Shown here piece by piece: positions 17,804 through 34,446 of a stretch of 64,000 bases of DNA. A program made the translations under genes and the position numbers. Every line of letters starts with the position of its first letter. The first letter of the stretch is position 1. A model generated the notes under the pieces. The model was not told where the DNA came from. It worked only from the letters and a program-made list of their open reading frames with translations, and did no database searches. The stretch lies in contig CAZOGW010000003.1 of assembly GCA_964579415.1 (NCBI GenBank), positions 7,759-71,758 on the forward strand, given 5' to 3'. This DNA comes from an uncultured Acidimicrobiaceae bacterium (GTDB lineage Bacteria; Actinomycetota; Acidimicrobiia; Spongiisociales; UBA5794).

Positions 17804-20800
17804 ATGTTCCAGCCCCACGCTTCGCGAGCGCCTGCCGTCGCGCTTCCGCCAGGGGCGCCGCCCAATAATCCCAGCGTGACGGCCATCGCGGAGGCCCGCC
17901 GGACTTGGATGGCGTACGACCGTGCCTTCCACGTCCAGGCTGACTCGGTGTCGCTGGTCGCCGAGCTCATGCTTCCGGCATCTGACCTCGCCGAGATGGT
18001 CAACGCTCTCACCGTTATCGGCACGCAGCCGCCCGCCGCGACAAAGGCGGACGTGAAGCACGGCGCCACGGCGCTGGCGGTGCTGATGCCCAACGTGTGT
18101 CGCGAAGACTACGGCGAAGCGACCTTCTGGCCCCACTTTTGGGACCGGATCGGTGTCCCACAGCCCCGCCGGCAGGCACTCCAGACCGCCTTCGGCGAGA
18201 CCTTCCTCGAAGGACTCAAGCGCGCGCGGTGGCCCGCGTTCGATGACGTTGGACAGAAGTACCTCGCCAACATCCTCATGCATGCCGGCGTCCCCGATGC
18301 GCTGCTTCCGGACTGGTTCGAGCTGCTGGACGCGGCGACCCGCGCCGTGACCTTGGAGCCCGACCTCGTCACCCGTTGGATCAGGGATAGAGCGGGTGTG
18401 GGAGGCCTGCCGTGGGTGAACGTGCCCCTGCGCCGGCTGGTCTTGCATGGCGGCCCGTTCGCGGCGGATCTGATCGAGCGCAGCCTGACGTTGCTGGACC
18501 TTGTCCGATCGGGCTCCGACCGCGACCCGGCCTTCCTGGGCCTCCCTCCGGCCTACCTCACAGCTGCCGAGACCCACTGTCGCGCCCGCGCTGCTCTACG
18601 GGCGACCGGGGGCATCCGGGCAGCCTCGGCTCCCGTGCTGCGGCTGGTGCCGGAGGAGGGTCGAGTCGAGCTCGCCCTGCCACAGCTGGAAGACGTCGTA
18701 GACACGTTGCGCTGGCTGGTCAAGATCGAGCAGCGCACCGTCGAGATCGTCCCGCATCGGCTCTGGGGCGGCGATCGGGTCCAGTTCGCAGGGGCAACAG
18801 TCCCGGTGGACACACCGACACGGTCCATTGAAGTCCGTGCCATCGGCGCGGATCGAGCCGCCCTGGTACCGGTCGTTCCTGATGACCTGCCGTTGCTCGC
18901 CTTCGACCGAAGCGGTGCGGCTATTCGGGTAGCTGAGGGACTGCCAGCCGAGCCGGTATGGCTCCTGGGACCTCCGTCGGGGTCGGCTGCCGGTCCCCAG
19001 CTCAGCGTCGTGGGAGGCCGCCTGATGGCCGACATGGGGTCACCCCTGGGATGGGCCGGCTGGCCGCTTTCCCTGTGGGATCTCGGCGGCGCCGAAGCGG
19101 TCGAGGTGGGGGATCACACAGTAGGTCTCACACGCCGCACGCGTGCCCAGATCGAGTCGGCGCCTGCCGGGCATGTCGAGGCCGCCTCGATCGCCGGGCT
19201 GCCCCTGCATACGCAGCGTCCGGCCGTCAGTCTCCCGGCTGGCCACGCACAGTGGTCGGTGACGGTCAGCGACTACCAGACCGGTCAGATCGTGACCGAG
19301 CTCCGACACCAGGGTGAGGCTATGAGCCTGGACCCGTTCGCGGGGATGCCCGCCCCCATCGTCGGCGCATTCACGATCGTTGTGCGTGGACCTTTGGGCC
19401 GCGGCGCCAGCCGCACTTTCGCGCTCGCCGAGGGACTCAGCGTCAAGGTCGAGCCACACTTCCGGACCTTCGGACCTGACGGGCTGCGACCTGCCCGGGC
19501 CGCGATCGCCTTGCCTGGGGGCACGACCTCGTCTGCTGTGGTGGAGTTCGCCGCGGCTGAGCGACTCAGCTCCGTGCTGGTCACCGGTGCTGAGGGGCGG
19601 CAGGAGCGCATTGTCATCCAGCCCCCCTCGCTCGCTGTCGCGATCCAAGCTGAGGGCCAACCGCCGGGAGCGTGGAGCAACGGCCCTATCACGGTGCTGA
19701 AAGAGGACTTGGTCCATACGCACTTGCTCTTGCGGATCGGGCTCGGAGCACAGCCGGAGCTGGCCGTGTGCAGCGGAAACAGCGCGGTTCAAACTCTGGA
19801 CCCGATCTCGGTGACAGCAGAGCGGAACGTCGCATACAAGCTTGCCCGGATCGTCGACTCGGTTGATCACCTTGGGGCCAATGGACTCGTGCTCGGTCGT
19901 ACGTCCGACGATCCGGGGGTCCTGGTCGCGCGAATCGTTCCGCGGAAGCTGGCCACAGGAATCGCGGTCGACGACCCGGGGCTCCGGTTGGTCGATCCAG
20001 GCAGCGGTGACCTGGAGGTTGCGCTGTGGAGCACGGGCGAGCCTTGGCGTCCACCCATCGTCCGACGCTGCGACCAGGACGGTCGCATTGCGCTGCTCCC
20101 TGGCGATGTTCTCTCCGGAAGAGTCGTCGCCGTGCCCCGAGTCAGCGACCCGTGGAGCCTGCCCGACCCGTTCCCGCGATTCCCCTACCGGTTCAGCATG
20201 CTCGTCAGCGATCCCATGTCGGCCGAGGAGGAGTCGACCATTGCGCCCGCCGATACCTCGGTTGAACGGGCGTGGGCCACGGTCCTGCTCAACGTGGTGC
20301 TGCCGGGCTCCGTCCAGGCCAGCGGGCTCGCGGACGCCCGCCAGGCCCTGGATGCGCACGGACCGGAGGCCCTCGCTGCACTATCGACGTTCGCCCTGCC
20401 GCCAACGGAATCAGCAGCGGCCCTCGTCCGCACAGGCGTCGCTGGGGCATGCTCGAATGTCGCGGGCGATGACCTCAGCATCGCTGAAAGCCTTCGCGCA
20501 GATCCTGTGGCCGCTTCCCTGGCGCACCTGCCGACGGTGATGGCGCGACCCGACGACTTTCCGGAAGCACGCCTCGCGGTGCGCGACGCGTTGGGCGATG
20601 CGGGGCTGGCCTTCCTCGACACCGGTGTGGACGATCACATGGCTGCTGGCGCTTACGGGGATGACCCCTCGCTGATCGCGCTCGCACGACTCCGGAAGGC
20701 CGACGTGGCGCGGTTCGAGACGTTGCTGGCGTCCATGGCGCTGCGGCCGGTCGGGCTGCTCCACCCTGACAACCGGGTTCTCCGGTCGGTCGAGATCTTG

Positions 20801-21157
20801 GAGCGTGTCGGAGCCGAGCGCGTTCGGATCCTTGCCAAGGACTCGCTCAAGCTCGTGGTGACCGTCCGGGCATCACTGGCGAAGTCAGGGTTCGACCGGG
20901 CCGCTCACGCAATCGAGGAGCGAGGCGTGTCCGACGGTACGCCGTGGCTCAACCTCTCGGCCGCGTCGCTCGCCTGGTGCATAGCCCTGCGATACGGGGC
21001 TCGGGGACATGAGCTTGAGAGGCTGAGCCCACATCCTCAGATGTCCTCCTGGCGCGAGAACGCGCATGCCATAGCACCACTACAAGCCGTTGACCTCGTG
21101 CTGGCGGAGATCCATGCCTCGCACGACCTGCCGATCAACGATGGGAGACGACGGTGA
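17804..21157 (+). CDS. Large hypothetical protein (1117 aa), translationally coupled to the downstream helicase+DUF1998 gene; DruH-like by position (Druantia type III)
   Basis: No recognisable motif. Its stop TGA (21155-21157) overlaps the GTG start (21154) of the next gene as GTGA. Size and context match DruH. Confidence 0.6.
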   Translation: MFQPHASRAPAVALPPGAPPNNPSVTAIAEARRTWMAYDRAFHVQADSVSLVAELMLPASDLAEMVNALTVIGTQPPAATKADVKHGATALAVLMPNVCREDYGEATFWPHFWDRIGVPQPRRQALQTAFGETFLEGLKRARWPAFDDVGQKYLANILMHAGVPDALLPDWFELLDAATRAVTLEPDLVTRWIRDRAGVGGLPWVNVPLRRLVLHGGPFAADLIERSLTLLDLVRSGSDRDPAFLGLPPAYLTAAETHCRARAALRATGGIRAASAPVLRLVPEEGRVELALPQLEDVVDTLRWLVKIEQRTVEIVPHRLWGGDRVQFAGATVPVDTPTRSIEVRAIGADRAALVPVVPDDLPLLAFDRSGAAIRVAEGLPAEPVWLLGPPSGSAAGPQLSVVGGRLMADMGSPLGWAGWPLSLWDLGGAEAVEVGDHTVGLTRRTRAQIESAPAGHVEAASIAGLPLHTQRPAVSLPAGHAQWSVTVSDYQTGQIVTELRHQGEAMSLDPFAGMPAPIVGAFTIVVRGPLGRGASRTFALAEGLSVKVEPHFRTFGPDGLRPARAAIALPGGTTSSAVVEFAAAERLSSVLVTGAEGRQERIVIQPPSLAVAIQAEGQPPGAWSNGPITVLKEDLVHTHLLLRIGLGAQPELAVCSGNSAVQTLDPISVTAERNVAYKLARIVDSVDHLGANGLVLGRTSDDPGVLVARIVPRKLATGIAVDDPGLRLVDPGSGDLEVALWSTGEPWRPPIVRRCDQDGRIALLPGDVLSGRVVAVPRVSDPWSLPDPFPRFPYRFSMLVSDPMSAEEESTIAPADTSVERAWATVLLNVVLPGSVQASGLADARQALDAHGPEALAALSTFALPPTESAAALVRTGVAGACSNVAGDDLSIAESLRADPVAASLAHLPTVMARPDDFPEARLAVRDALGDAGLAFLDTGVDDHMAAGAYGDDPSLIALARLRKADVARFETLLASMALRPVGLLHPDNRVLRSVEILERVGAERVRILAKDSLKLVVTVRASLAKSGFDRAAHAIEERGVSDGTPWLNLSAASLAWCIALRYGARGHELERLSPHPQMSSWRENAHAIAPLQAVDLVLAEIHASHDLPINDGRRR

Positions 21158-34300: not shown

Positions 34301-34446
34301 CCATCCAGAGCGAGGAAGGCTCCGATCTCGAAGTGCCCACTGGCGATGTCTATCGCCGAACTGATGTCGCACCACTCTCGGACGTACTGCAGCGCCTTCC
34401 ACTCCTCGTCGGTGTTGTCGACGATGAACTGCTCAGGAGTCGCCAT
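31360..34446 (-). CDS. Phospholipase-D-family (HKD) nuclease domain fused to SNF2-family helicase (DrmC+DrmD-like fusion), 1028 aa
   Basis: N-terminal [39 protein letters not shown] is a PLD HxK(x)4D...N motif. SNF2 motifs [18 protein letters not shown] (I), [13 protein letters not shown] (II) and [11 protein letters not shown] (III). C-terminal helicase lobe [43 protein letters not shown]. Confidence 0.85.
   Translation of the reverse strand: [1028 protein letters not shown]

Follow-up and report, generated by a model that had tools for sequence, protein, structure and literature searches.

Druantia type III-B is defined as DruH plus a compact DruE without the PLDs of type III-A (10.64898/2026.05.13.724758; PMC12458937). 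An actinobacterial pair, DruH (1132 amino acids (aa)) and DruE (1667 aa) encoded by MSMEG_1253/1254, has no canonical nuclease, yet it protects M. smegmatis and blocks phage DNA circularisation and replication (PMC13316683). Cryo-electron microscopy of E. coli DruH revealed an N-domain, six immunoglobulin (Ig)-like subdomains, and a C-domain (10.64898/2026.05.12.722862). ARMADA I/II combine a BrxHII-like SNF2 protein (ArmA), a PglX/YeeA-like methyltransferase (ArmB), and a YprA-like helicase (ArmC), and in E. coli ARMADA II acts synergistically with an adjoining Druantia III (PMC12458937; 10.1101/2025.09.22.677730). Here we describe a six-gene block (g1 to g6) at positions 17804-34446 of a 64-kb, high-G+C stretch of DNA, which we call the window. 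The block, which lies beside an integrase gene, is probably part of a defence island in which Druantia III-B, extended by the gene pair g3-g4, stands tail-to-tail with an independent restriction-modification (R-M)-like pair composed of a PLD-SNF2 protein and a Type ISP-like methyltransferase. What is new here is the DruE-linked pair g3-g4.

The six genes were marked out by third-position GC. Five of their products are on record as called proteins on one 72.8-kb NCBI contig, and the sixth, g4, is on record with a GTG start at 26403. On the plus strand lie g1 (17804-21157, 1117 aa), g2 (21154-25800, 1548 aa), g3 (25810-26406, 198 aa, third-position GC of the frame 0.82), and g4 (26403-27797, 464 aa). 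The minus strand carries g6 (31360-34446, 1028 aa) followed by g5 (28025-31363, 1112 aa), and the two units converge tail-to-tail on an intergenic spacer of 227 nt (27798-28024). By direct reading, the GTG start of g2 overlaps the stop of g1 as GTGA and the stop of g6 overlaps the start of g5 as ATGA. Only 9 nt separate g2 from g3, and the GTG of g4 at 26403, which comes after a GGGAGGAGGG run, overlaps the stop of g3, again as GTGA. The catalytic motifs of g2, g5, and g6 are intact. A first-pass annotation of this DNA had placed a set of helicase, methyltransferase, and nuclease domains along the block, and all of them are found there in six real genes; its DruH/DruE operon of two genes is an operon of four. 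The G+C content is 0.60-0.63 for the stretch of g5 and g6 (28001-34000) and 0.65-0.69 for the DruHE stretch, which is consistent with a separate origin of the two units; since the gap lies mostly at codon positions 1 and 2, it is weak evidence for this.

The g2 protein is a compact DruE, a YprA-family superfamily 2 (SF2) helicase with a C-terminal MZB/DUF1998 domain and no nuclease domain. It matches the Pfam families DEAD (84 bits), Helicase_C (44 bits), and MZB/DUF1998 (47 bits, aa 1443-1519), and its scores against the PADLOC models DruE1 (593 bits) and DruE3 (585 bits) identify it as the DruE of Druantia type III. GSGKT, DEAH, and a CxC...CxxC cluster are present. Its sequence matches in the PDB are the large helicases 9tu7 (E 4.5e-76) and 9wae (E 1.9e-42), and we infer that 9tu7 is a Druantia helicase from the neighbouring entry 9tud, which is named DruH. 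The protein stops 29 residues past the MZB domain and has no PLD match in Pfam, which agrees with the published definition of III-B; the III-A DruE of E. coli, in comparison, has 2104 aa. The fusion of helicase and DUF1998 in a single DruE-type protein of 1548 aa, and the Druantia III layout with a domain-less protein of 1117 aa coupled upstream through a GTGA overlap, had both been proposed in the first-pass annotation and hold.

The g1 protein occupies the position of DruH. A genome scan with g2 across GTDB species-representative genomes yielded 80 DruE loci, which are mostly actinobacterial and share 43-51% identity with g2. By tblastn, 57 of these loci have a relative of g1, and the listed matches lie on the same strand in the 3.4 kb directly upstream; under a stricter count, which demands that the g1 match end at most 600 nt from DruE, the number is 34 of 80. 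According to open reading frame (ORF) maps, most of the 80 loci have an upstream ORF, typically of 1000-1350 aa. An exhaustive profile-free search gave 392 representatives of the g1 family at E<=1e-3, almost all of about 1100 aa. No domain of g1 was matched in Pfam, PADLOC, or NCBIfam. Its AlphaFold2 model (predicted local distance difference test score (pLDDT) 86.4) comprises a helical N-domain (aa 25-263), about six beta-sandwich units (aa 278-780), and a helical C-domain (aa 820-1108), a layout that matches the cryo-electron microscopy description of E. coli DruH. The best Foldseek matches of the model are Ig-type arrays of macroglobulin and complement proteins; 9tud, which is in the PDB sequence file, is absent among these matches. 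By position and layout, g1 is thus a DruH, a domain-less protein of about 1100 aa that is coupled directly upstream of DruE.

By sequence, g1 falls outside the described DruH families. None of the PADLOC DruH3 models matched g1, 40 members of its family, or 8 upstream proteins of distant loci, whereas the DruH of an E. coli IncY plasmid, our positive control, matched all 10 DruH3 models with up to 2457 bits. This control comes from plasmid pRHB39-C18_2 (L143, 2199-19693), which carries a Druantia III-A of DruH (1119 aa) and DruE (2104 aa); the ArmA-like and ArmB-like genes that follow DruE there were also used as positive controls. The DruH profiles in standard use miss the whole actinobacterial family found at the DruH position, so automated tools may under-call Druantia III-B. 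Overall, g1 and g2 share with Druantia III-B the two coupled genes, the ~1100-aa upstream protein in which no domain is annotated, the actinobacterial host, and a DruE with DEAD, Helicase_C, and DUF1998/MZB that lacks a C-terminal PLD. They differ from it in that g1 is recognised by none of the DruH3 profiles and in that two further genes, g3 and g4, follow DruE in the subclade of g2.

These two genes form a rare DruE-linked pair. The g3 protein has no family match even at E<=10, and g4 has no match in Pfam, PADLOC, or NCBIfam; searches with full-length g4 and with its separate domains at E<=10 returned coiled-coil noise only. The g4 protein consists of a helical N-domain with a conserved RNDW[YF]H motif, a coiled coil, and a conserved C-domain. 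Its AlphaFold2 model is poor (pLDDT 46.6), and Foldseek returned coiled-coil matches only (E>0.5). An Rx4H motif within a helical domain is typical of HEPN toxins. The RNDW[YF]H motif of g4 resembles it, which is only a lead: alignment of g4 by hhalign with a family of HEPN_Swt1 proteins that is described below gave a probability of 0.3%, and as the profile, structure, and hhalign searches were all negative, it is the motif alone that points to HEPN.

A search of 5.8 billion proteins returned one match to g4, two metagenome scans and one viral scan found no further relatives, and the 80 GTDB DruE loci contain no relatives of the g3-g4 pair. The three known homologs of g4 (on contigs L085, L086, and L091) each abut the 3' end of DruE. 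L085 and L086 are among the contigs with the three closest g1 relatives. The former encodes DruH, DruE (59% identity), and then homologs of g3 and g4 on the opposite strand, and the latter encodes DruH, DruE, and an inverted g4 homolog, where the contig ends. L091, the contig of the database homolog, carries the C-terminus of a DruE (73% identity) followed by g3 and g4, co-directional as in the window. Homologs of g3, at 38-43% identity, adjoin the g4 homologs in L085 and L091; the g4 homologs share 43-49% identity, so that g3 and g4 together span 38-49%. The linkage holds across DruE identities of only 55-73%. Placement 3' of DruE in two orientations and at 38-49% identity argues for a functional tie between g3-g4 and DruE, as seen on four contigs.

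It is unlikely that the block holds three independent systems, in which case g3-g4 would be no Druantia accessory but a self-contained cassette, for defence or of toxin-antitoxin type, inserted at the same hotspot as the DruHE lineage. The inversion of the pair relative to DruE in L085 and L086 means that it can be transcribed on its own, its absence from the 80 other DruHE loci means that Druantia III-B works without it, and the conserved Rx4H of the g4 helical domain, which is a resemblance only, would suit a toxin-like cassette. Yet all four known g4 proteins, including that of the window, abut the 3' end of DruE despite their low mutual identity, and the protein, metagenome, and viral searches found no g4 homolog in any other setting. 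Moreover, the pair follows DruE closely and co-directionally both in the window (9 nt) and in L091 (17 nt), with g3 and g4 overlapping in both. We take g3-g4 to be an auxiliary effector or sensor, a two-gene accessory gained in a narrow DruE subclade. For the mechanism by which III-B clears phages without any nuclease, the DruE-linked pair offers a concrete candidate for an added effector or sensor.

The minus-strand unit is of a different kind. The g6 protein is a PLD (HKD) nuclease fused to an SNF2-type SF2 ATPase. It matches PLDc_2 at aa 32-173, followed by ResIII, SNF2-rel_dom, and Helicase_C in Pfam, and contains GLGKT, DEAH, and a PLD-type H-x-K with GSSN; the PLD at the N-terminus of the SNF2 protein had been noted in the first-pass annotation. 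Profile searches thus detected both of the domains, DUF1998 and PLD, on which that annotation had staked its domain reading. The best PADLOC match of g6 is C3a139 'HKD+Snf2' (168 bits). The g5 protein is an N6-adenine methyltransferase with a Type ISP-type target-recognition domain: it matches Type_ISP_C with 212 bits at aa 730-1064 (cut-off 25.9) and N6_Mtase with 32 bits in Pfam, scores 704 bits with PADLOC REase_MTase_IIG, and has DPANGTGTF (motif I) before NPPY. In a PDB search, the alignments of g5 with LlaGI and LlaBIII began where the methyltransferase domains of these two enzymes begin, so the first 340 residues of g5 occupy the place of the nuclease-helicase-coupler part of Type ISP enzymes.

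The g5 protein is also a mosaic. Compared with close relatives, aa 1-400 are 72-89% identical, whereas identity falls to only 25-48% over aa 401-1112, the part for catalysis and specificity; the conservation of aa 1-400 is in step with that of g6. This is the specificity-swapping pattern known for LlaGI and LlaBIII (PMC3553950). Like Type ISP enzymes, the g5-g6 pair unites an SF2 ATPase and a nuclease in one functional unit with a gamma-class N6-adenine methyltransferase, after which comes a Type ISP specificity domain. Its motor-side part is conserved and its specificity part varies, the same contrast that LlaGI and LlaBIII show. It differs from them in that two polypeptides replace one, with nuclease and ATPase placed on the separate g6, and in that g6 has a PLD/HKD nuclease in place of Mrr and an SNF2-type motor. 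Further differences are the roughly 340 N-terminal residues of g5, which have no known homolog and stand at the coupler's place, and a third gene in the close relatives of the pair.

These relatives are numerous. We found >5730 homologs of g6 at E<=1e-50, with >100 clusters at 70-86% identity across actinobacterial genera; in contrast, DruE has no relative above ~73% identity among the sequences retrieved. At 83-84% identity, relatives of g6 were read in Nocardioides, Rhodococcus erythropolis, and Marmoricola (L088-L090). In all three genera the gene order is PLD-SNF2, a Type_ISP_C methyltransferase (1137-1145 aa), and a HEPN_Swt1/DUF3320 protein (367-379 aa), with genes that abut or overlap, and an integrase gene is nearby in two of the three contexts. 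The third gene (L088 16533-17672; L089 16485-17615; L090 14989-16092) encodes HEPN_Swt1 and DUF3320 domains, is 72-76% identical across the three genera, and has a weak match to PDC-S37 as its only PADLOC match. No remnant of it was found in the window by tblastn, and no Druantia lies within 10 kb of the g6 relatives in these genera. Large methyltransferases also accompany more distantly related PLD-SNF2 genes, which lie on Rhodococcus, Nostoc, and Deinococcus plasmids. Relatives of g6 on viral contigs are distant (23-35% identity, one 27-residue fragment excepted) and have no g5 or DruE neighbours, and so are uninformative. From its sequence relationships, g5-g6 looks like a two-gene, HEPN-less copy of a widespread and mobile PLD-SNF2/Type ISP-like module. 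In the literature searchable here, this module has no name and no experimental characterisation. Its PLD-SNF2 protein has >5700 relatives and is close to identical in many actinobacterial genera, and the module would be a natural two-protein version of the translocating Type ISP restriction enzymes.

The block contains the domain types of several described systems, of which DISARM class 1 (DrmA, DrmB, DrmC, DrmD, and DrmMI) is the most obvious, with an SF2 helicase, DUF1998, PLD, SNF2, and an N6-adenine methyltransferase. The kinship with DISARM that the first-pass annotation had read into this set did not survive profile scoring: the NCBIfam scores are far under the cut-offs for DrmD (133.9 vs 610), DrmC (24.5 vs 133), and DrmA (21.8 vs 999). 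Instead of the single operon of DISARM there are two convergent units, and unlike in DISARM a single DruE-type protein contains both helicase and DUF1998, PLD and SNF2 form one protein, and the methyltransferase is of the Type ISP kind. Nor is g5 PglX-like, as had been suggested. It has no PADLOC match to PglX (as in BREX; E<=1e-3) or DrmMI, for which the ArmB control gets 191 bits. A neighbourhood can thus hold all DISARM domain types without being related to DISARM, and profile scores together with gene neighbourhoods assign the parts of the locus to known kinds.

ARMADA and the Hma/BR systems were likewise rejected. Similar to ARMADA, the block has an SNF2 helicase and a large methyltransferase near a Druantia-like YprA helicase. 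The genes here, however, are convergent and not in a single operon, g6 has an N-terminal PLD, and it matches ArmA at the helicase motifs only (60 and 42 bits); against PADLOC DrmD, ArmA scores 335 bits and g6 110 bits. The g5 protein is related to ArmB by its methyltransferase fold only (E=0.75), and the sole YprA helicase of the block pairs with a gene in the DruH position and scores as DruE. Hma/BR type 2 (PMC12839542) offers an HKD nuclease N-terminal on a Swi2/Snf2 helicase, an N6 methyltransferase partner, and an R-M-like character. BR systems are defined by a DUF499 AAA+ ATPase (PMC12839542), to which type 2 adds DUF3780. No scanned gene of the window matched DUF499 or DUF3780, while DUF499 was detected in another DruE locus (L043), which served as a working control, and the methyltransferase here, unlike that of Hma/BR type 2, carries a Type_ISP_C domain.

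Neighbourhoods across genomes bear on whether the two units belong together. None of the 80 DruE loci contains a g6-like PLD-SNF2 gene (the best SNF2 neighbour reaches 56 bits), and one (L031) contains a g5-like Type_ISP_C methyltransferase, which has no helicase with it. The first-pass annotation had left two options, one hybrid system or two juxtaposed ones; these counts, together with the three close g6 relatives that lack Druantia, favour juxtaposition and speak against the hybrid. The comparison came out essentially as that annotation had sketched its own counter-case, an ISP-like R-M pair beside Druantia III. Most probably, the two units act separately, at most additively or synergistically, and do not form a single complex.

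Several observations weigh against our reading of the locus. The grounds for calling g1 a DruH are its position, its size, its predicted layout, and the way the literature uses the name, and hhalign of the g1 family with E. coli DruH gave a probability of 0.2%. A g1-family protein of Actinomadura miaoliensis (L001 10001-13321, 28% identity) has no adjoining DruE; its gene comes after a GmrSD_N gene and a gene for a 326-aa protein, with overlapping ends, and the same island also holds genes of Eco57I/DUF7008 type and NERD-kinase type (PglX/PglW-like). The linkage of g3-g4 was sampled on four contigs. The second-closest g1 relative lies on L087, a metagenomic contig of 7.6 kb, where a g5-like N-terminus follows a gene for a PLD-SNF2 protein (54% identity to g6); compared with the window, this pair lies on the other side of DruH-DruE and is divergent. 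Other DruHE loci adjoin different SNF2 and methyltransferase systems. In L028 (6390-22485), the genes for a DruH-like protein, DruE, an SNF2 helicase, and an Eco57I/MmeI-type methyltransferase of 1370 aa run in the same direction. In L043 (6603-24523), the Hma/BR type 1 set, composed of SNF2-NOV_C, a DUF1156 methyltransferase, and DUF499-HEPN_Swt1, comes directly after DruH-DruE. DruHE also adjoins Hma/BR-1 in L004 and has a divergent SNF2 gene in L018, L025, and L037. Repeated selection for pairings of this kind is possible, as in the published case of Druantia III and ARMADA II (PMC12458937).

For the narrow actinobacterial lineage of the window, one could propose a four-gene, nuclease-less III-B in which g3-g4 supply the missing effector or trigger and which repeatedly recruits PLD-SNF2/Type ISP-like R-M partners, so that the six genes would be co-adapted though separately transcribed. 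We regard this as doubtful. The L087 adjacency would allow a functional liaison within a narrow subclade, and by analogy the DruHE/SNF2 adjacencies may echo the published synergy of Druantia III with ARMADA II. However, g6 is 83% identical to unlinked copies and 54% to the L087 copy, so the adjacencies in the window and in L087 arose separately, and DruHE beside SNF2 and methyltransferase systems fits ordinary defence-island clustering. We consider it very unlikely that all six genes form one composite DISARM/ARMADA-like system, with DruE as YprA helicase, g6 as SNF2 motor and PLD nuclease, g5 for self-marking, and DruH and g3-g4 as sensors: although every domain type of DISARM class 1 is present, a III-B DruE has no nuclease of its own and g6 has one, ARMADA, which is common in Actinomycetota, joins a Druantia-like YprA helicase to an SNF2 helicase and a methyltransferase (PMC12458937), L087 repeats the adjacency, and the L028 genes are co-directional, the two gene sets are convergent in the window and divergent in L087 and hence have separate promoters, DruE loci lack g6-like genes (0/80) and close g6 relatives lack DruHE nearby (0/3), g6 is closest to its unlinked copies, and neither the ArmA and ArmB comparisons nor the DrmMI, PglX, and DISARM scores given above support kinship.

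Under our preferred reading, Druantia III-B with g3-g4 beside an independent R-M-like module, the two units would work as follows. By transfer from published work, DruE may load on exposed single-stranded or 3'-tailed phage DNA and unwind it 3'-to-5', and DruH, with its Ig-like array between two helical domains, may serve as a DNA-binding sensor or partner. The g3-g4 pair would add an auxiliary effector or sensor to this system. Within the second unit, g5 would use its Type ISP-type specificity domain to recognise an asymmetric site and would methylate adenine, thereby marking self DNA. Its N-terminal 340-400 residues, which are conserved in step with g6, may dock g6. On unmodified sites, g6 is predicted to translocate along DNA driven by ATP and to cut with its HKD nuclease. 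This copy lacks the HEPN_Swt1/DUF3320 gene that the module normally has as its third.

The integrase next to the block is a tyrosine recombinase/integrase ORF on the minus strand (16377-17594; Phage_integrase, 67 bits in Pfam), divergent from and directly upstream of g1, and a DUF5131 gene (15820-16563, Pfam) stands before it. No terminator-like sites were reported inside the spacer between g4 and g5, and promoter and terminator scans of 13-37 kb gave nothing exceeding shuffled expectation. Repeat searches over 13-37 kb found no island-flanking repeats, and no tRNA genes were found in the window. A non-coding stretch of 1.2 kb upstream of a 369-aa ORF (14714-15823) contains, at 13761-14501, three copies of CCACTGGTCACA..TTG and two of the longer TGGTCACAnnTTGGTCACAAACGC, which look like operator or iteron sites.

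Further cargo of island type lies upstream, at 4279-13543 of the window. It includes a 1502-aa minus-strand ORF with only a weak Sacsin/HATPase-like match, a 222-aa ORF, an ImmA/IrrE-like protein with HTH_3 and Peptidase_M78 (9672-10796), and, directly after the latter, a superfamily 1 helicase of 913 aa with AAA_30 and UvrD_C_2 (10802-13543). Downstream, at 38627-52356, are genes that may be further conflict systems. Their products include an 821-aa Hsp70-like protein with TPR, a 982-aa tandem-AAA protein, a 441-aa VWA protein, and a protein of 1176 aa in which PD-(D/E)XK and RNase_H_2 occur together with an AAA_11/12 helicase.

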